A stretch of 64,000 nucleotides of DNA, from positions 2,048,001 to 2,112,000 of the forward strand of contig OY969767.1 in the NCBI GenBank assembly GCA_963702895.1, written 5' to 3'. This DNA comes from an uncultured Elusimicrobia bacterium (GTDB taxonomy: Bacteria > Elusimicrobiota > Elusimicrobia > 2-01-FULL-59-12). The position numbers and the translations under genes are program-made. Within the stretch, counting starts at the first letter, position 1, and each line of letters opens with the position of its first letter. Below are positions 2,871-15,620 of the stretch, in pieces. Below the pieces are notes generated by a model. It was not told the DNA's origin. It ran no database searches and saw only the letters and a program-made list of their open reading frames with translations.

Positions 2871-4813
2871 TAGAAATTTGCGGCGGGACGCAGTTGCCGT
2901 TGGAGGCGGGCCTTCTGCTTCTGCATGACCTTCTCGAACCGATCAATTTCACGCAACACCTTGGAGAGGGGCTCCAGTGTCCTGCCCTGTGCGATGTTAT
3001 GCCATGTTTCGAGCTTGTATTCATCCATCCCAATCAGAATCTCTTCGACCATCGCCAAAAGGGCCGGTGCCAGACCTGGGATCCGCCGCAAGAGAACCGC
3101 GGAGAGACGTCCCACCTCTGAGCCGACCTCCTCCTGCTGGGCGGCGGGACGAGGAACGACCGCTAAATCATGGAAGAGTGCCGCCAAGGCCATGGCATAA
3201 CGGTGCTCGGGTGAGGCACCGGCTTCCTCAGCGCCGGTCAGGGCCATCAAGACCGTCCGCGCGACATGGGCCGGGAGATTCCCGGGCTCCACGGACCTCG
3301 CGAGGTAGCGCGCGAGCACATCATGGCCCTCGGGTAGAAACTCACTCGACTCCTGCAAAAGCGGGCTGACCGATTCCAACACCCCTTCCGGCGCCTGCAG
3401 GGCAGGCGAGTAAAGAAGTTTGGCGACTTCCACCCATCGCTCATAGAGGGAGGCCGCCTTTTGCGTCAAGGGATCGGCAGGGAGCTCCGGCGTGACCACT
3501 TCGAGCGCGACCGCGCTCGGAGGCGGTTCCGGGACGGAGGACGCCGTTGGTTGAGCCGATGGGACTTTCCACAAGCCATCGAGAGGCAAAGGTTCGGAGA
3601 CGATCTTCTTCGACTTTTTGGCGCGCCTCATCACGACACCCAGAAGGGCCACCGCCAGAACGCCTCCGGCCAGAACAGGCCAGCCCTCCACCCGCCGGGG
3701 CCATGTCGGCTTCTGGAACGGACGCGCTAAGGTCCATAAGGATTTGGCTTGTTTCTCTTCCTTCGCCAGCGCCTCTGCGCGGCGGCCGAGGTAGCCCATC
3801 CAGACTTTGGTCTCATTGATCTGACGATCATAAATCGAGAGTTTCTCGGTCAATCGGGTGGATCGGCGCCCTGTTTTTCCAAGCAATTCTTTAATTTGTT
3901 GACCCAACTGAGCGATATCGGTGTGCGTCGGGTAATTTTCAATCAAGAGGTTCCTGCGGGCTTTTAAGGACTCAATTTGGGCGATGAGCTGCGCGTTCGG
4001 CGTGGTCGGGACGGGGCCCATGAGGAGCGCCTTGCGTTCAAGAGCAAGCTGCTTCAAATTTGTCTCGAGGTTCTGTTGCTGTTTCTGGAACGTTACCACC
4101 TTCTTGTGGAGGGCGTCCTTTTCTCGGGCCAGAGAAGACGCGATGACCGCTTGGACGACCCTGCTTAAGCGCTCCATCAGCTTGCCTGGCATGGACGCCG
4201 TGCCACGGACGAGTATCTGAGGCGGCTCGCCAGGGACCTTTTCGAGGGTCGCCTCCGCCAATGGAATGGAAGGGTCCGCACGAAGTTGTCCCACTTCTTC
4301 TTCCAGATTCTTGGGGTCCCCCCCATAAACGAGGGTGGCTTCTGATTCAAACCTCAACCGTGGAAGGCGCAGATATTGAGGTTTCAAGAAGGAGTGGAAA
4401 TCGATCGATTTTTTGGCGGGGGCCTGGGCTTGCGTGCGGGCCAACTCCAGCTTCTGGTTCAGTGCCGTGTATTCCGCTTCCAGTTGCGGCAGTTTCTCGA
4501 GCGCCGTGCGCATGGTGGCAATTTGCTCATCCAGGATTTTGATGTCCGGGTGCCCGTTGGGATAATGGCGAAGGAGCTGGTTTTTTCGTCCTTCAAGATC
4601 GATCATACGACCCGCGAGAGATCCGCCGGGACGCAGCTGCTTAATACGAACGATAAATTCTTGCTTTTGAGCGGAAAGGCGCTCGACTTCAGGGCTCGTC
4701 GCGGCTCGTGCATGGGCTTCCTTAATAATAAATGGGGAGTAGCTGGGCCACCACCGGACCCCAAGAATTCCGACGATCACCACCAGGACAACGAAAATTA
4801 GGATTTTCTTCAT
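2870..4813 (-). CDS. Wzz/GumC (polysaccharide co-polymerase)-like membrane protein with C-terminal degenerate HD-like domain
   Basis: N-terminal TM, coiled coils with YPNGHPDI and YPTHTDI motifs, Pro-rich segment before a second TM (WPVLAGGVLAVALLGVVM), then a cytoplasmic H...LAALFHDL segment. SD AGGAGG upstream. Confidence 0.6.
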   Translation of the reverse strand: MKKILIFVVLVVIVGILGVRWWPSYSPFIIKEAHARAATSPEVERLSAQKQEFIVRIKQLRPGGSLAGRMIDLEGRKNQLLRHYPNGHPDIKILDEQIATMRTALEKLPQLEAEYTALNQKLELARTQAQAPAKKSIDFHSFLKPQYLRLPRLRFESEATLVYGGDPKNLEEEVGQLRADPSIPLAEATLEKVPGEPPQILVRGTASMPGKLMERLSRVVQAVIASSLAREKDALHKKVVTFQKQQQNLETNLKQLALERKALLMGPVPTTPNAQLIAQIESLKARRNLLIENYPTHTDIAQLGQQIKELLGKTGRRSTRLTEKLSIYDRQINETKVWMGYLGRRAEALAKEEKQAKSLWTLARPFQKPTWPRRVEGWPVLAGGVLAVALLGVVMRRAKKSKKIVSEPLPLDGLWKVPSAQPTASSVPEPPPSAVALEVVTPELPADPLTQKAASLYERWVEVAKLLYSPALQAPEGVLESVSPLLQESSEFLPEGHDVLARYLARSVEPGNLPAHVARTVLMALTGAEEAGASPEHRYAMALAALFHDLAVVPRPAAQQEEVGSEVGRLSAVLLRRIPGLAPALLAMVEEILIGMDEYKLETWHNIAQGRTLEPLSKVLREIDRFEKVMQKQKARLQRQLRPAANF

Positions 4814-4858: not shown

Positions 4859-7171
4859 TTAATTTGCACTCTGAAGCTCTTCATCAAAGGTGGCCTCAAA
4901 CTCCTGATAAGCCAGCCTGCAATCGAGATTGGCCTGCTGGCAGCTGGCGAGGATTTTCTTTAACAGCTTGATGCGTTCGGCGATCGTAGCGCCTGCAGCG
5001 ACCTTGCGGGAGTACTGCAACAACGCCTTTTCATAGCGAATTTGCGACTCGGAGCGCATTTCTTGGGCCTTTTGGGCGGTCGGCGGTTTTGGCGCCACCT
5101 CGGGCACCGTGACGACTGGTTTTGGCGCAGGCGCTGCCTTCGCAGGACCTGCGGTTCGGATAGGTTCTGGCGGCTCATGCTCATAGCGGATCGCTTTGTT
5201 CACAATCCGTTGGAGGGACGCGATTCCATCATTCATCGACATCCCCTGTGCGGGCAAGGACCGCTGGTAGTTCCAGGCCAGGTGCAGCCAAGCCATGTAA
5301 CGCAAGTCCCGCGCGTCTTGGAGGTTCCAGGGACGATTCACCAGGATGTTTTCCAGATACTTCTCCAGGGTGCGCATCAGATAATTCACGCGCTCAGGCT
5401 CTGAGGCTTGGCGCGATCGCAAGTGCGCGTAATAATTCTTTGTGTTCTGCAGTTCATCTTCCAGGTCCATAAACTCCGTGAGTTCCTTCTGAGAGCTCTC
5501 GAAGTAGCTCTTCCAAAGATCGAACTGGGCCTCAAAAGCACCGACACGATGCGCGGACGGCGCCATGAGCAGCGAAGAAACACGCACCAGGAGCTCCTCG
5601 ATGTTTTTCACTTGGGGCACGGGCGACACTCCCAGCGGTCGCGCAGCCGTCAGAGGCACCTGAAGATCTTCCAAAGTCACCGTGGGTGTCGTGGTTGTTG
5701 GGTCCTCCATGATCCCCTTCATCGCTTTGTCCGAAGGCGGCTCTATCTTGGGCGCTTCTTTTGCGAGATGCCCGAGCATCATCTCTGCAGTGACCTGTTC
5801 TTCGGAAGGCGTTCCCGCTCCGGCGCTTGGAGGAATGATGACGATGACGGCAGATCCCGGCTGAGCGGATTTTTGGGCTTGAGCAATCAGCTTCGAAACG
5901 TCTGACACGGATTGAGGCGCCGCGGCTTTTGCCCCTGATGAACCGCGTTGGGGCTGTCCCTGGATCAGCTGTTCCATCTCATTCAGTTCCTGGGCATAGG
6001 CCGAAGACGGCGTCTTGCGAGGTTTTTGCGTCACAGACTTTGGCGTGGCTTTCTTTGCGACAAGTAATTCACCAAGCACGACTGACTCTTCTTTCTTGGG
6101 CTCTTCTTTTTTGGTCTCTTTTTGCCTTGCTTTCAGGATGGGCTGGGCCGGCGCCTCGGGCACACCAAAGCGATAGCTCATCGAGAACCGATGTGTCCCG
6201 GAGGTATCGCCCAGCGTGATGCCGCCCAGATTAAAGACGAACGTATAGTCAAAACCGAGGGCCCCCATCTCATAGCCGCCTCCGAGCGCAAGCTGACGAT
6301 ACTGGCGACTTCCGGCGGCCAAAGACCCGCGGACCGCGACGCGGTCCCCGCCGATCAAACTCCACTTGCGTTCCGCGGCACCGGTCGCGATCGTGTCGCT
6401 CTGGTTGGAGAGTGTTTGCCGTCTTTGCAGGGCACCGGCAAAGCTCAGGTAGCGATTGCGGGCGTAGGAGATGGCCAGTCTTGTCGTGCGCGGGACAATT
6501 TCATGATCAGCGCTTGAGAGCGCGATATTGGGCTCATTGATGTCCTGGAGCGAGAGCGCCAGCGTCGTCTTATCCGTCCACCGGTACAGGGCGCCCAGGT
6601 CCGCGGAGTAGGCGGTGTTCGAGTGGCCGTTTTGCGTGAAGAAGTCGGGCGTGCCGGATTGAACGTTGCCGTTGTTGTCGACGATGATCTGGGGCACGCC
6701 AAAGGAGTGATAAAGCTGCTTGAGGGCCCCGCCAATGGCAATCTTGGACGTCAGCCACTCCCCGTAGCCTAAGGAGAGCGTGCGCTCCTTATAGAGGTCG
6801 TCGAGCCCGAACTGTTTCCAACTTACGGCCAGCGTCCCACCCCAGGACACGGGCTGGCCGTAAGCCAGATAGGTCTGTGATAAATTGGAGCCGTCGGAGA
6901 GGCCCGCGAAGAGTTTCGCGTACTCGGACGTGACTTCTTTCTGCCGGACGCGGGCCAAGGCCGCCGGGTTGTAGGCGAGAGACAGCACGTCATCGCCCAT
7001 CACCACATAGGTGTCACCCAGCGCGGTGCCGCGGGCGCCCGTCCCCTTATCCTCAAACGCCGCGTGGACGGGTACGGCAAACAGCGTAAATAGTGAATAG
7101 AAAATAGGAAGCGCAAGCGCTTGAACTATTGACCATTTACCATTCACGATGTTTGCCTTTGCTGTCATCAT
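4859..7171 (-). CDS. Outer-membrane beta-barrel (PorV/FadL/UPF0164-like) with long Pro-rich linker and C-terminal helical region
   Basis: Signal peptide ending VHA, then GARGTALG...DDVLSLAYNPAAL (PorV/FadL-like N-terminal motif), amphipathic strands ending THRFSMSYRFG, and a ~430-aa extension. Confidence 0.7.
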   Translation of the reverse strand: MMTAKANIVNGKWSIVQALALPIFYSLFTLFAVPVHAAFEDKGTGARGTALGDTYVVMGDDVLSLAYNPAALARVRQKEVTSEYAKLFAGLSDGSNLSQTYLAYGQPVSWGGTLAVSWKQFGLDDLYKERTLSLGYGEWLTSKIAIGGALKQLYHSFGVPQIIVDNNGNVQSGTPDFFTQNGHSNTAYSADLGALYRWTDKTTLALSLQDINEPNIALSSADHEIVPRTTRLAISYARNRYLSFAGALQRRQTLSNQSDTIATGAAERKWSLIGGDRVAVRGSLAAGSRQYRQLALGGGYEMGALGFDYTFVFNLGGITLGDTSGTHRFSMSYRFGVPEAPAQPILKARQKETKKEEPKKEESVVLGELLVAKKATPKSVTQKPRKTPSSAYAQELNEMEQLIQGQPQRGSSGAKAAAPQSVSDVSKLIAQAQKSAQPGSAVIVIIPPSAGAGTPSEEQVTAEMMLGHLAKEAPKIEPPSDKAMKGIMEDPTTTTPTVTLEDLQVPLTAARPLGVSPVPQVKNIEELLVRVSSLLMAPSAHRVGAFEAQFDLWKSYFESSQKELTEFMDLEDELQNTKNYYAHLRSRQASEPERVNYLMRTLEKYLENILVNRPWNLQDARDLRYMAWLHLAWNYQRSLPAQGMSMNDGIASLQRIVNKAIRYEHEPPEPIRTAGPAKAAPAPKPVVTVPEVAPKPPTAQKAQEMRSESQIRYEKALLQYSRKVAAGATIAERIKLLKKILASCQQANLDCRLAYQEFEATFDEELQSAN

Positions 7172-9111
7172 CGGGCGACGACCACGGTTCCCGTGGCACT
7201 CTCCTTTCCGGCCTGGATCTTGTAGAGGTAGACGCCGCTCGGCACGACAGCGCCGTTTCCGTCTCTTCCATCCCAGACCAGGGAGTTGGAAGTCGGCGAG
7301 AGACTGCTGAAGGTGATGTCTCGGACCACGGCACCGCGGATGTCGTAAATCGTTCCGGTCACGGGGTCACCCGACGGGTTGTCGAAGAACCAGAAGACGC
7401 GGTTGTTCTGCGACGGATCGTTGGGCGTGATCACGCGCGGGTAAGGCGAGTTCTGTGAGAGTTTGAAGACGGTTCCAATTTGGGTGGCGCGGACCTGGTA
7501 GATTCCGATGTTCCGAACGCTCACGGCGATCTGCTGGGCCGAGGTCAGGACAGGATCGCTCAGCCGGATGTAAGCGGCGCCGTTGTACCAGTAGACCGAG
7601 ACGATTTGAGCGATCGAACCCGGGCCAGGGTCAAGAAATTTCGTGCGGTAGTGGCCAGTTCCTAAAATTGCTCCAAGGCCCAGCTGGACCTGCATGTCGT
7701 TTCGCGAGAAGGCGAAGTTCGGCAACGGCCTGCCGGACTGAGCCAAATAGGCTTCAACGCGGTAGGACCGCAGGGTGACATCCACTTCGTCCTGGGCTCG
7801 GCGCACAATGACCAGCTCAACATCCTCGCCATAGCCGTTGAACCCAGCGTTCAGTTCATGAAGGAGCGCCGCAGGGACCACCACGCGCGTTGTCGGATCA
7901 TCGGCGGCCACGACAATGCGGTTCTCAAGGGTGTCCACATAATCAGAGGCCGCCGATGTGAAGCCGCCCACACCAACAGCAAAGACGCGGTAGTAATAGG
8001 TCTGTGCCCCCACCGCCTCGGAGTAGCTCAAGGTGTCGGCCCCTAAGGTCCCTACGAGCGTCGGAGTGGATTCAATCGCGTCGTACCGGTAGACCGAATA
8101 GTGGTCAAGAGTGATCGGCAGGTAATCTGTCGCGAGGGTGACGGAACTCCAGCTCACGGTAAAGAGACCCCCCGCATTGGAAGCGACAAGTCCATTGGGC
8201 CGCAAGGGTGTCCGGATGATCTGCAGACGTTCGGCAACGACTTCTGAAGAGGGCGGGCTCTCCCAGGCCGTGCCAGGATAGGTCGGCGCCCCTCGATCAA
8301 GGGCCGTGATGATGTAGTAGTAGGAGGTCCCTAGGACAACCGAGTTGTCGCTATAAGAGGTCCCCGTTGACGAACTGAGCAGAACGTAGCCGGTCCCGCT
8401 CTCTGTGGACCGATAAATTTGGTAGGCATCAAAATCAGGCCCTTTCTGGACCGTAGTGAGGTCGGTCCAGGCAAGGTCAATGGACGAGAGAGTGCCGGTC
8501 GCGCTGAGCCCGCTCGGCGTTCCAGGCACCAGATCAACAGGACTCGCTTGGGCAACCCCAGCGATATCGGACCAGAAATCGAGCGAGACGCCCACATCAT
8601 CGGCGGAACGGACGGCGATGTAATACGTGGCCCCAGGGAACAGTGCCAAGGTGTGGTCGGACCCGGTGCCGGGTGGCCCCAAGGTCCTTGTGACGGCATC
8701 CCCTGGAGACTCTCCGTAAAATCCTTGGGCTGTGAAACCGCCAGCGGTATTCCACCAGGCGGTCGTGCTCCCGCCAACGCTGGCCAGTGAAATCGTTTGG
8801 ATCCTGACTTGGTAGGCCTCAAGCGTACTCCCGGGGAATACGGTCGGCGCTGTCCAATCAAGGCGTAGTTGTCCTTCAACGGCCACAGGCGTGGTCGAAA
8901 GGTCAACAATCGTGGCTGGAGGAACTCCAGCAAACGGCCTGACGCTCAGAGAGGCGTCAACGAATGAAGCGGCATAAACCGGTCCGGGCGGGCCGAGTAA
9001 ACACAAAGCTCCCCCGACGAGCACCAGGTGCCGTATCCAACGCGTTACACGCGCGATGAAATTGTTCTCGCTCGTAAGTGCTCCTTTAACTTCCTTCCAT
9101 AACTCCTCCAC
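7168..9111 (-). CDS. Secreted fibronectin type III repeat protein with C-terminal FlgD-Ig / gliding-motility-type sorting domain
   Basis: FN3 motifs (LDWTAP, YQIYRS...YSD...YYYIITALD). The C-terminus reads PRVITPND...WDGRDGNGAVVPSGVYLYKI...GTVVVAR. Start position uncertain. Confidence 0.75.
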   Translation of the reverse strand: MEELWKEVKGALTSENNFIARVTRWIRHLVLVGGALCLLGPPGPVYAASFVDASLSVRPFAGVPPATIVDLSTTPVAVEGQLRLDWTAPTVFPGSTLEAYQVRIQTISLASVGGSTTAWWNTAGGFTAQGFYGESPGDAVTRTLGPPGTGSDHTLALFPGATYYIAVRSADDVGVSLDFWSDIAGVAQASPVDLVPGTPSGLSATGTLSSIDLAWTDLTTVQKGPDFDAYQIYRSTESGTGYVLLSSSTGTSYSDNSVVLGTSYYYIITALDRGAPTYPGTAWESPPSSEVVAERLQIIRTPLRPNGLVASNAGGLFTVSWSSVTLATDYLPITLDHYSVYRYDAIESTPTLVGTLGADTLSYSEAVGAQTYYYRVFAVGVGGFTSAASDYVDTLENRIVVAADDPTTRVVVPAALLHELNAGFNGYGEDVELVIVRRAQDEVDVTLRSYRVEAYLAQSGRPLPNFAFSRNDMQVQLGLGAILGTGHYRTKFLDPGPGSIAQIVSVYWYNGAAYIRLSDPVLTSAQQIAVSVRNIGIYQVRATQIGTVFKLSQNSPYPRVITPNDPSQNNRVFWFFDNPSGDPVTGTIYDIRGAVVRDITFSSLSPTSNSLVWDGRDGNGAVVPSGVYLYKIQAGKESATGTVVVAR

Positions 9112-13431: not shown

Positions 13432-14727
13432 TTACTTCGCCACGCTGATATAGACGCGGCTGTAGACTTCCACCGGAATATCCCGTCCCTGCAGGCCGCC
13501 CTGGATGACAAACATGAAGCGTTTCCCGCGTATGGCTGGGTCATCGGGAAGTTCCAGGGTGATGGAGGTGCTCTTGATACTGTCACCGGGGACTTTGAGG
13601 TCCGTGTGTTTGACTTTGATCCACTCCGGCTTTCCGTACTCGTACCCGGACGCCGCGGCCATTCCGCCTGGCGCTGGCACCGAGGCAACCTTGAAGTTCA
13701 AGGTTTGAGGGCTGCGATTGATGAGGCTGAGTCGAACCCCCATCTCGGAGAGGTCCACCTTCTTCCCTGGCACCATAAAGCCGGGGACATACTGAAGGTC
13801 CGGCTCAAGGGTAAAGTTGAGCATCTGGTAGATGCCCTGTTTCTGCAGGCGGCGAATTTCTTCGGGGCCCGCCGAGCCGACGCTAAAACGCAATCGGCTC
13901 GACAACGCAATCCCGAAGGACAACGCTGTGACCTGCCCAGGCGGTGGTTCCGGTGTGGTCGCTGTCAGATGGGCCTGGAAATGCCGTCCCACATACTCTT
14001 CACCCGGCGGGACTTGAAGAATGACATCCACGAGACCCTCTTCGCCGGCGGCCAGCTTGAGGCGGCCAGGGACCAATTTGATCCAGGACGGATCGACAAT
14101 CGCCTCATAACCAGGCTTGAGCTGCTCTTTGCTGGGGATTTCGACTTCCACCTGGAGTTCGACTTCGCCGTTGGAGCGGTTCTCCACACGGTAAGGCAGG
14201 TTCCGCATGGTCCGGAGGTTGTAGATTTTGCCCGGCTGGACATGCTCCATGATGACGTCGGCGAACTTGGTGCCCACGTTGTAGCCGGCTTCCGCTGGCG
14301 TCGCGGAAAAGCCCAACGCGCCTGCGAGCAGCACGGCGATGAGCCCTTTCCAGAAACGACCGGTGTCGGAAGGGTAATCACCGCCTCGTTCGGCAAGCGC
14401 AACGGCCTCGAGGGTCTTACGAATACCCCGGAAACGCGCCTGTCCATACCATGGCCGGAAGGGCGTGGTCTTGGGAGCTGGCGTGGAGGCCGCTTTGACC
14501 ACATCCAAGGCGTACATCTCTTCCGCTGGAGTGGCCAACTGGTAGCGGTGAGGCTTCTCTTCGATGAGAAGCCCACCGGAGGTGAGGTTTTCCAGGATCG
14601 CGACGCAAGAGTCGAAGGGGACCCCCTGTTCGCGGCTGATGTCATGAGCGGAGCGCCATGACGTGCTCTTGTCCTTGAAGGCGCGCAGGCACATCAAGGC
14701 ATACTGAATGCTTTGCTGATTATTCAC
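13432..14727 (-). CDS. Rrf2-like winged-HTH fused via internal signal/TM segment to two Ig-fold chaperone-like domains
   Basis: N-term YALMCL...SAHDISREQGVP...ILENLTSGGLL...YQLATPAEEMYALDVV resembles Rrf2. It is followed by RFWKGLIAVLLAGALGFSATPAEA and a domain aligning with 15621..16097. GTG start with SD AAGGAG. Confidence 0.65.
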   Translation of the reverse strand: MNNQQSIQYALMCLRAFKDKSTSWRSAHDISREQGVPFDSCVAILENLTSGGLLIEEKPHRYQLATPAEEMYALDVVKAASTPAPKTTPFRPWYGQARFRGIRKTLEAVALAERGGDYPSDTGRFWKGLIAVLLAGALGFSATPAEAGYNVGTKFADVIMEHVQPGKIYNLRTMRNLPYRVENRSNGEVELQVEVEIPSKEQLKPGYEAIVDPSWIKLVPGRLKLAAGEEGLVDVILQVPPGEEYVGRHFQAHLTATTPEPPPGQVTALSFGIALSSRLRFSVGSAGPEEIRRLQKQGIYQMLNFTLEPDLQYVPGFMVPGKKVDLSEMGVRLSLINRSPQTLNFKVASVPAPGGMAAASGYEYGKPEWIKVKHTDLKVPGDSIKSTSITLELPDDPAIRGKRFMFVIQGGLQGRDIPVEVYSRVYISVAK

Positions 14728-14832
14728 GTGTGACTCCTTATGATGTTGGTAGGGCGTCTTCGCCTGAGGGAGCGGCGATCATCACCGCTGGTTGCGACGG
14801 GTGTTTCGGTAGGTACGGCCGGGGTGGGCCCT

Positions 14833-14886
14833 AAAAAGAAATAAGGCTTATCCCGTTATCCCCTTCTTCGAGGACAAGGACAAGCC
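14833..14886 (-). terminator. Intrinsic terminator/attenuator in leader of subunit operon
   Basis: Minus strand GGCTTGTCC-TTGTCCTC-gaagaa-GGGGATAA-cg-GGATAAGCC followed by TTATTTCTTTTT. Confidence 0.75.
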
Positions 14887-14920
14887 CCATGCTTGTCATG
14901 CGGCGGCCTTCTTGGCCGCC
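14879..14920 (-). promoter_or_regulatory. Putative ANTAR-binding dual-hairpin RNA element
   Basis: Minus strand GGCGGCC-AAGAA-GGCCGCC, 4-nt linker, GACAAGC-ATGGG-GCTTGTC. Hairpin 2 overlaps the terminator 5' arm. It begins ~10 nt after the ANTAR gene stop. Confidence 0.7.
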
Positions 14921-14929
14921 AGGTCTATG

Positions 14930-15538
14930 TTAAGCGGCTCTCTTGGCTTTTGTCTTTCCGCCTAAAACCATCCGGACCTGAATCAAGGAACGACACAGTT
15001 CCTTGAGTGTGATGCCCTGATCTTGGGCCATTTTTTGAAGCGTCCGGTGCGCTTCATCTTCCGTGTAGCCTTGCTGATCCATCAAAATCCCTTTGGCTTT
15101 TTCGAGAAGTTTGCGTGTTTCCAAAGTTTCGGAAAGCGTCTTCATTTCTTCTTTGAGGGATTTGATCGTTAGGAAACGGTGCCAGGCGCCCTCGATCATC
15201 GGAACGACTTGGGAGGTTTCGATGGGCTTGGCCATATAGGCGCTAGCGCCCAAATCCAAGGCTTGACGGCCGATCTTCGCTGATCCGTCTGCCGTCAAGA
15301 TGACCACAGCGGTCGTTTGAAGGGGCACGATTTGCGCAAGCGCCTCGAGGCCACTCGACTGTGGCATGTGAACATCCATCACGATAACGTCTGGCTTTTT
15401 TTCTTTCACAAGCGCCACAGCTTCCAGGCCGTTGTTGGCGATCCCGAGGATTTGATATTGGGATTGGCAGACGAGTTGCAGAACATTCAGAATGTCCAGT
15501 TGATCATCAGCAAACGCTACAGTTTTAACTCGTTCCAT
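14930..15538 (-). CDS. REC-ANTAR response regulator (AmiR/NasT/EutV type RNA antiterminator)
   Basis: Receiver motifs ADD, MDVHMP, LTA, AKP; coiled coil; ANTAR motif RKLLEKAKGILM...TEDEAHRTLQKMAQDQ. Start moved to the ATG at 15538. Confidence 0.93.
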   Translation of the reverse strand: MERVKTVAFADDQLDILNVLQLVCQSQYQILGIANNGLEAVALVKEKKPDVIVMDVHMPQSSGLEALAQIVPLQTTAVVILTADGSAKIGRQALDLGASAYMAKPIETSQVVPMIEGAWHRFLTIKSLKEEMKTLSETLETRKLLEKAKGILMDQQGYTEDEAHRTLQKMAQDQGITLKELCRSLIQVRMVLGGKTKAKRAA

Positions 15539-15545
15539 CGGCTCA

Positions 15546-15574
15546 AGTCTATGGTGAATCCGTAGTGATTTCAA
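15546..15574 (-). promoter_or_regulatory. Putative promoter TTGAAA-N17-TAGACT with AT-rich upstream element; likely leaderless mRNA
   Basis: The -10 box ends 7 nt before the ATG at 15538. No SD. A/T tract at 15575-15620. Confidence 0.6.
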
Positions 15575-15620
15575 TGTTTTTTATTGTTAAAAAGTAAATT
15601 AAACAGTTTGATATTTAGAT

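Follow-up and report, generated by a model that had tools for sequence, protein, structure and literature searches.

A putative antitermination switch with non-canonical hairpin loops behind a divergent REC-ANTAR gene in an uncultured Elusimicrobia bacterium

Among described ANTAR regulators, EutV provides the closest model for the element reported here. According to the parts of PMC8934654 drawn on here, the EutV-RNA structure shows loop nucleotide G4 stacked on Tyr164 and recognized by Arg142, Lys149, and Glu160, with Met172 acting as a plug in the loop and Asn173, Arg175, and Arg177 gripping the stem. The authors proposed that Met172 bars smaller loops, such as tetraloops, and suggested that A1, which contacts no protein in the structure, serves the fold only. 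Binding was abolished by M172A and by N173A/R175A/R177A, and Y164A reduced it 55-fold. Mycobacterial ANTAR targets often act on translation, as stated in part of PMC8164766. In the portions of PMC3369931 and PMC8164766 that describe them, published ANTAR motif searches required or nearly required A1/G4 hexaloops, and the variant family described below would therefore be missed by them. We found no non-hexaloop ANTAR targets, no clade with His164 and Gln172, and no ANTAR-controlled pili in the ANTAR literature, where supplementary motif tables might differ.

Layout and folding of the attenuator

We analyzed a window of 64,000 nt from an uncultured Elusimicrobia bacterium, in which two tandem hairpins, P1 and P2, were located 3' of a REC-ANTAR response regulator gene (Table 1). 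P1 began 9 nt past the stop codon and was separated from P2 by a 4-nt linker, and both hairpins had a C-G closing pair. The 2.72-Mb genome contained 44 perfect 7-bp A-N-G pentaloop hairpins, of which this locus held the only tandem pair. A hexaloop re-reading, with the closing pair opened, was rejected; it would need a bulge in P1 and failed in P2. Two DNA sequencing runs gave no coverage of 14434-14997 and hence no independent reads over the pentaloops. An assembly error at the pentaloops is disfavoured because pentaloop P2s were also present in the closest relatives (loci L013 and L022).

The minimum free energy of positions 14935-14820 was -52.7 kcal/mol (z = -4.74), and 0 of 200 shuffled sequences were as stable. 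P1 was kept in this fold, and the loop and 3' arm of P2 formed the 5' arm of the terminator (14886 pairs with 14845). Forcing P2 cost 8.4 kcal/mol. In growing transcripts, P2 had a probability of 0.99 until the 3' arm of the terminator emerged, and of 0 thereafter. The original prediction had called tandem 7-bp pentaloop hairpins with a 4-nt linker, and a P2 that cannot coexist with a terminator of about 17 bp; both claims were confirmed, the second by folding of the alternative conformers. The apical hairpin of the terminator persisted in the antiterminated fold, and similar loops were seen in units L013a and L022a.

P2 was also predicted to be stable alone (-8.8 kcal/mol), unlike the 3-4-bp P2 stems of canonical sites, and in L013a and L022a the terminator was favoured by <2 kcal/mol in folding. 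Such stability would suit an attenuator that is independent of protein or otherwise controlled. Kinetic competition between P2 and the terminator might then allow a constant leak and thereby tune the ratio of regulator to pilin, or the RNA might be acted on by another factor, for which the GAF-ANTAR protein of the same genome is one candidate; the regulator residues that bear on this alternative are given below.

Two further hairpins of the family type lie downstream of the terminator. The third is probably the remnant of a second attenuator unit, as seen at loci L004, L013, L014, and L022. Arrays of G4-type hairpins occurred in several leaders, and this leader had five.

Table 1. Features of the locus and of the related sites discussed in the text
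Feature	Position	Strand	Basis
AT-rich conserved element adjoining the -35 box (possible UP element or operator)	15575..15590	minus	
Sigma70-type promoter, TTGAAA-17-TAGACT	15546..15574	minus	consensus scan, conservation
REC-ANTAR response regulator, 202 aa, H164/Q172 clade	14930..15538	minus	Pfam, alignment, residue counts, tree
REC-ANTAR stop codon	14932-14930	minus	
P1 hairpin, perfect 7-bp stem, loop AAGAA, G at register 4	14902..14920	minus	
P2 (antiterminator) hairpin, perfect 7-bp stem, loop AUGGG	14879..14897	minus	alignment, pair counts, co-transcriptional folding
Predicted intrinsic terminator, 17-bp core 14886-14845, extending to 14890-14841	14833..14886	minus	
Apical hairpin of terminator, loop GAAGAA, obeys family G4 rule	14856..14877	minus	
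U-rich tract of terminator	14844-14833	minus	
Third hairpin of the family type, 7-bp stem, pentaloop AUGAU, 3' of terminator	14771..14789	minus	
Fourth family-type hairpin, GAAGAC register, just 5' of ribosome-binding site, no terminator after it	14753..14764	minus	
First putatively gated gene, with Rrf2-like winged-helix domain (residues 1 to about 120) and chaperone-like part	13432..14727	minus	
Six secreted fibre-subunit genes	13416-12853, 12720-12154, 11966-11400, 11212-10646, 10458-9892, 9823-9263	minus	ORFs
Genes for FlgD-Ig/CTD-type surface protein and PorV-like beta-barrel protein	4859..9111	minus	
Canonical A1/G4 ANTAR attenuator before amt-glnB-gltB (L197/L218)	G000:C1:490306-490380		
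G1-hexaloop sites of L170, before glnA-like ORFs	L170: 2940-3010 and 5070-5165	minus (2940-3010)	ORF reading
G1-hexaloop site of L135	about 4.8 kb upstream of its ANTAR gene		

The RNA family and the regulator clade

Close homologues of the REC-ANTAR protein were found in 4 of the 10 other genomes of the family (5 loci) and at 11 metagenome loci (two duplicate genome loci). Eighteen attenuator units were present at 14 distinct loci, the four loci with a second unit carrying two in series. The leaders shared a near-invariant P2, GACAGGC[loop]GUCUGUC, which overlapped a U-tailed terminator by folding in 18/18 units, and the P2 of our locus aligned as a homologue of the family form GACAGGC[GAUGAR]GUCUGUC. 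Terminator columns were 96.7% paired (0/500 shuffles) and P2 columns 95.2% (9/500), in shuffles that ignore relatedness and with alignment row L004b off by one column; covariation of P2 is weak, since its sequence hardly varies. A linked three-way change in our locus (A in the P2 5' arm, U in the shared arm, and A in the terminator arm, where the family has G, C, and G) preserves both structures. The closing pair, at alignment columns 9/17, was C-G in 17 of the 18 units, the exception being the misaligned L004b.

A covariance model (R1) trained on the 18 units was run over the window and 170 loci. Besides the training units, it detected one new unit, L025 (40.2 bits, E 1.9e-7 in a held-out test), and none among the 153 loci outside the clade, where the best score was 21.0 bits. 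This brought the total to 19 units, with a unit at 15 of 16 distinct clade loci. The sequence of the sole clade locus lacking one, L007, ends 505 nt past the stop codon; at L018, which is syntenic with L007, the unit lies 1037 nt past the ANTAR stop. The L025 unit follows a promoter-like TTGACA-17-TAGATT, precedes the ANTAR gene itself, and has loops GAUGGA and GAUGGG. A G4-type P1 was present within 48 nt in 16/19 units and absent in 3/19, and was more than 12 nt from P2 in 4 of the 16. When R1 was used in a regulon search of 12 genomes (150 candidates scored per genome), strong matches (44-64 bits) occurred only beside variant ANTAR genes, and all other scores were <=23 bits. The consensus pattern gave no match in viral contigs, no clade member was found among the 80 loci retained from a protein scan of genome contigs, and a 401-genome sample of the phylum yielded no new clade member. 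The clade probably belongs to Elusimicrobiota, a guess made because the Atlas neighbours are mostly Elusimicrobiota. Conservation beside orthologues, covariation of both structures across orthologous loci, and strict co-occurrence with one ANTAR clade all agree with the earlier assignment of the element as an ANTAR-type attenuator.

We then compared the loops. P2 loops of the 19 units had six nucleotides in 14 (mostly GAUGAG or GAUGAA), five in 4, and four in 1, and position 1 was G in 15, C in 3, and A in 1. Pentaloop P2s were found in our locus, in its close relatives L013a and L022a, and in L004b. P1 loops, present in 16 units, had four nucleotides in 7, five in 2, six in 5, and seven in 2. 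G at register 4 occurred in 19/19 P2 loops and 28/33 upstream hairpins, against 282/952 genomic hairpins and 40/136 hairpins 3' of other REC-ANTAR genes, under a rule defined after seeing the same and related sequences and with the register set by hexaloop homologues. A1 was found in 4/35 variant loops versus 29/32 loops at 16 Firmicutes eut-type sites, which were selected visually from a scan that left position 1 free; six amt sites, found by requiring A1, were kept out of this comparison. P-values for the G4 and A1 contrasts are overstated, one lineage being essentially one evolutionary event. P2 stems were 7-8 bp in 18/19 variant units versus 3-4 bp in 19/22 canonical sites.

The non-canonical A-N-G-R-R pentaloops of the original prediction stood in part. 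They are present at this locus and A1 is lost, but in the alignment to homologues their A corresponds to hexaloop position 2, register position 1 being a paired C in both hairpins, and pentaloops are not the rule, since our locus alone among the 19 units had twin pentaloops. Judged from the sequences, what sets the variant apart is that A1 is lost, loop size varies, and stems are long, with G retained at register 4. The element is not a plain member of the known ANTAR targets, because it lacks the A1 hexaloop and its regulator lacks five RNA-contact residues.

Ordinary ANTAR attenuation with relaxed specificity, in which the adjacent protein antiterminates here but reads any G4 hairpin, as other ANTARs can, pentaloops are tolerated drift on long stems, and true insulation is absent, would also be compatible with the many six-nucleotide P2 loops (14/19), with A1 contacting no protein in the EutV structure (PMC8934654, in part), with Gln172 and His164 each being common among ANTARs, and with G1 at P2 in 3/16 canonical Firmicutes loops of EutV-type loci, one of which is GAUGAG, the commonest variant loop. 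The P1 loops fit this explanation poorly and make us regard it as unlikely: A1 was present in P1 at 16/16 Firmicutes sites versus 3/16 variant units, and in 9/16 variant units the P1 loop is closed down to 4 or 5 nt, several times by a G-C pair. SELEX with NasR gave hexaloops with A1/G4 (PMC7496416, in the part considered), which also argues against relaxation.

We also examined whether the loops could be CsrA/RsmA sites or another orphan twin-hairpin motif. The P2 loop region of our locus resembles the CsrA loop consensus, and a few family loops contain GGA. Most family loops are devoid of GGA, a scan of the window at Rfam gathering thresholds returned no match, and this explanation appears very improbable. 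The CsrA reading itself was rejected, no CsrA being found in the 98%-complete single-contig genome in a search whose control was detected in 3/14 genomes.

The regulator matched Pfam Response_reg PF00072 and ANTAR PF03861 above cut-off, and alignment to EutV, NasR, and Rv1626 indicated that its ANTAR numbering is collinear with that of EutV. The clade was taken as the 113 top protein matches, delimited by a sharp drop in score. Its members kept the G4-reading residues (R142 in 113/113, K149 in 110/113, and E160 in 111/113) and carried replacements elsewhere (H164 in 111/113, Q172 in 110/113, D173 in 104/113, and G/A175 in 108/113). The 153 outgroup loci had F/Y/W164 in 145 and M172 in 114, and L025 was the only one of them with both His164 and Gln172. 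In a tree of a 109-sequence subsample, all 32 His/Gln tips, L025 included, formed one clade with support of 0.999. Neither change is unique: Gln172 was present in 30 and His164 in 31 of the best 150 representative ANTAR matches. AmiR also has His at position 164.

The clade differs from EutV at all five positions whose mutation harms EutV binding. RNA binding by the clade is not assured, because EutV mutants at these positions lose or weaken binding (PMC8934654, in part), as would be expected if the His/Gln protein no longer bound RNA and the attenuator were protein-independent or otherwise controlled. We consider that alternative quite improbable: a kinetic switch leaves the invariant loop G and the upstream arrays of G4 hairpins unexplained, the units are strictly linked to the His/Gln clade, even the relocated L025 unit, and the clade strongly conserves its own ANTAR surface.

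A phospho-acceptor pocket was recognized in the receiver domain (D11, D12, D55, T82, and K104-P105). D55 was present in 106/112 clade proteins, and the DNA-linked members L007 and L025 had no acceptor Asp. These residues make phosphorylation dependence of the regulator plausible. No cognate histidine kinase was found for it. The nearest kinase gene (30548-29001) was syntenic in L021 only, among the loci checked, and was present in 10/11 family genomes, with or without the module; it was rejected as a specific cognate. At L025 (7870-8576), a clade member with a pseudo-receiver lies behind its own attenuator and is followed by a response regulator gene and FlgD/PorV-like genes. Positive autoregulation is possible there.

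Putatively gated genes and the second ANTAR system

A promoter-like sequence precedes the regulator gene. The consensus scan gave 3 sites versus 2.1 expected by chance. The promoter TTG and A-N-ACT were kept in 9/9 upstream regions, and the AT-rich element T-AACA-N3-AAAAAC was invariant in the same 9/9 aligned regions, which had been picked from 13 for showing this element. The predicted transcription start is at or next to the ATG, with the same spacing in L013, and the regulator mRNA may be leaderless. In the strongly conserved promoter region (15590-15546, minus strand), the invariant upstream box forms a weak inverted repeat over the -35 box. It may be a candidate operator for the Rrf2-like protein, with feedback on the regulator promoter.

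Gene order was conserved as adhesin, chaperone-like genes, promoter, REC-ANTAR, attenuator, Rrf2-like gene, subunits, FlgD/CTD, and PorV-like gene. In the first putatively gated gene of our locus, an Rrf2-like domain is joined in frame, through a signal or transmembrane segment, to a secreted two-domain Ig-like putative chaperone. This fusion was found in our genome, G003, and G004; most relatives have separate ORFs. Rrf2 PF02082 was matched by 10/12 family members at E<=0.05 (best 6e-12), our protein scoring below the curated cut-off, and the best PDB match of the domain was an Rrf2-family regulator. Its two conserved cysteines are C13 and C41. The chaperone-like C-terminal part lies near WxLIP clusters at 0.86, which is a lead only. 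The chaperone-like gene was present in 6/11 family genomes, namely the five with the variant ANTAR and G003, whose contig begins inside the Rrf2-like domain. This gene module behaves as a unit.

The gene directly behind the unit was Rrf2-like at 12/15 loci, and the other three had a truncated ORF (L019), a protease-like ORF (L010), and an ANTAR gene (L025). L010 (G005:C75) carries a second clade paralogue, with the attenuator before a trypsin-like protease ORF and a P1 loop devoid of G. At L007 a subunit gene directly follows the ANTAR gene. The switch travels with the Rrf2-like gene, because at L018 one subunit gene lies upstream of the attenuator. Gating of the subunits is likely in our locus, because the first subunit gene starts 15 nt after the stop codon of the fusion gene. 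The consensus terminator scan was silent over 14800-9100, which is weak evidence for co-transcription, as the same scan missed the bulged terminator of the attenuator.

The subunit model had a pLDDT of 95.6. The top Foldseek matches were the TasA fibre (E=3e-3), TLP-1a, archaeal bundling pili, and cannulae, none of which reached E 0.001, and the VIA Z score of 6.7 for TasA was tied with unrelated Ig folds, the scores being middling. The first subunit matched no Pfam family, Pfam WxL included, and gave an Atlas WxL lead at 0.82. On the basis of these models, a donor-strand fibre is probable. The expectation of a surface-structure target was thus upheld in so far as the subunit fold is closest to TasA and other donor-strand fibres, but the immediate target is the Rrf2-like winged-helix gene.

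Four near-identical subunit genes (12720-9892, minus strand) repeat with a 754-bp period. The spacers between them are long and palindromic, with GTCATCCC...GGGATGAC-like ends, and a palindrome resembling them is found upstream of the GAF-ANTAR gene (L001). The length of this array could be assembly-sensitive. Upstream of the regulator, 27310-16094 (minus strand) encodes a secreted adhesin of 3738 aa, which contains long internal repeats and ends in a subunit-like domain. The FlgD-Ig/CTD and PorV-like genes were syntenic with the fibre cluster in L198, L199, L018, and L025, the PorV assignment resting on NCBIfam matches below cut-off. This linkage suggests a T9SS-like route of export or anchoring.

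The genome has two ANTAR genes. The second encodes a GAF-ANTAR protein with Phe164/Met172 (G000:C1:1293885). A canonical A1/G4 attenuator was located before amt-glnB-gltB, with loops AACGAA and AUAGAG, 3-4-bp stems, and a terminator. Loose dual-hairpin scans of the genome gave 13 to 17 mostly chance matches per loop class, and this site was selected for the strength of its terminator, for its gene context, and because it recurs in relatives, in which A1/G4 dual sites preceded amt genes at about 6/20 loci. A promoter-like TTGACC...TATCCT lies upstream of it. An ANTAR domain was found in 11/12 genomes of the order, and the 5 with the variant protein all carry a second, canonical-type ANTAR; of the 11 second copies, the 10 amenable to alignment had Phe/Tyr and Met. 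The GAF-ANTAR/amt system shares with our locus a G-G-C[loop]G P2 core, G4, and the overlap with a terminator. It differs in its A1 hexaloops, 3-4-bp stems, Phe/Met protein, and nitrogen targets. The presence of two ANTAR systems in one cell offers a reason for divergence, and we infer insulation of the fibre switch from the nitrogen ANTAR system.

Proposed mechanism and comparison with known systems

We think it likely, on sequence and folding evidence, that the element mediates dedicated antitermination by the adjacent REC-ANTAR protein, whose specificity would have shifted. The conserved promoter would transcribe the regulator gene. While the regulator is inactive, the terminator would displace P2, and transcription would stop near 14835. 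Phosphorylation of Asp55 and dimerisation, as in EutV, would activate the protein, which would bind the exposed loop G of P1 and P2 and hold P2 folded, and RNA polymerase would then go on to transcribe the Rrf2-like gene as well as, in this genome, the genes for the fibre subunits. With Gln in place of the Met172 plug and His in place of Tyr164, recognition could proceed with no need for an A1 hexaloop. The variant RNAs would offer loops of 4-7 nt on long, pre-folded stems, which may compensate for the missing stem-clamp residues, and loops of 4-5 nt may be accommodated where the Met plug is gone. The RNA-binding surface of the clade and its RNA targets appear to have shifted together, and the altered recognition would separate the fibre switch from the canonical nitrogen ANTAR system.

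A stronger version, which we hold tentatively, is that the two systems form a naturally orthogonal ANTAR pair, in which replacement of Met172 and Tyr164 allows the reading of tetra- and pentaloops that canonical ANTARs reject, giving two insulated circuits. If so, residue 172 would be a general loop code, an idea raised because two other non-Met172 lineages adjoin non-canonical loops. Phe164/Gln172 ANTARs of Actinomycetota MAGs (L135 and L170) had G1 hexaloops (GCAGAA, GACGTG, and GACGGG) overlapping terminators, at 2 of 11 Phe/Gln loci. The His164/Arg172 REC-ANTARs L009 and L012, from the class of our organism, had attenuator-like elements within about 100 nt 3' of the stop, with 7-nt C-first loops (CACGAUA and CAGGACC) and, in L012, two terminators in series.

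The clade provides a natural test of the proposed exclusion of small loops by Met172, for which the same genome supplies a canonical pair as a control. The mechanism, if confirmed, would show how ANTAR paralogues escape cross-talk, extend ANTAR control beyond nitrogen metabolism to the assembly of surface fibres in an uncultured lineage, and provide an orthogonal RNA switch for synthetic circuits.

With fibres of the TasA/WxL/Elr type, which form by donor-strand exchange (PDB 8aur; bioRxiv 10.64898/2026.10.17.759780, in part), the cluster has in common a subunit with an N-terminal extension and a predicted Ig-like fold, chaperone-like genes, and a large adhesin. Its subunits differ from WxL/Elr in having no Pfam WxL match and a Foldseek match above E 0.001. 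The abstract of the bioRxiv report confines the WxL system to Bacillota and does not mention ANTAR control.

NasR (Klebsiella oxytoca nasF leader) and Rv1626/PdtaR (Mycobacterium tuberculosis) share the homologous ANTAR domain and the dual-hairpin logic, and differ from our regulator in having Met at 172 and Trp or Phe at 164. EutV/EutW and the E. faecalis eut leaders, as described in parts of PMC3369931 and PMC8934654, share the REC-ANTAR architecture, tandem hairpins, P2-terminator overlap, C-G closing pair, and loop G4, and R142, K143, K147, K149, and E160 are kept. The linker of our locus is 4 nt, compared with 5-12 nt at the E. faecalis eut sites (PMC3369931, in part). In contrast to the eut system, loops of our clade have 4-7 nt and no A1, P2 stems are 7-8 bp rather than 3-4 bp, and the protein carries Y164H, R168Q, M172Q, N173D, R175G, and R177T relative to EutV. 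The switch lies directly behind the gene of its own regulator, for which no linked kinase was found, and its target is a regulator and fibre operon rather than nitrogen or ethanolamine genes.
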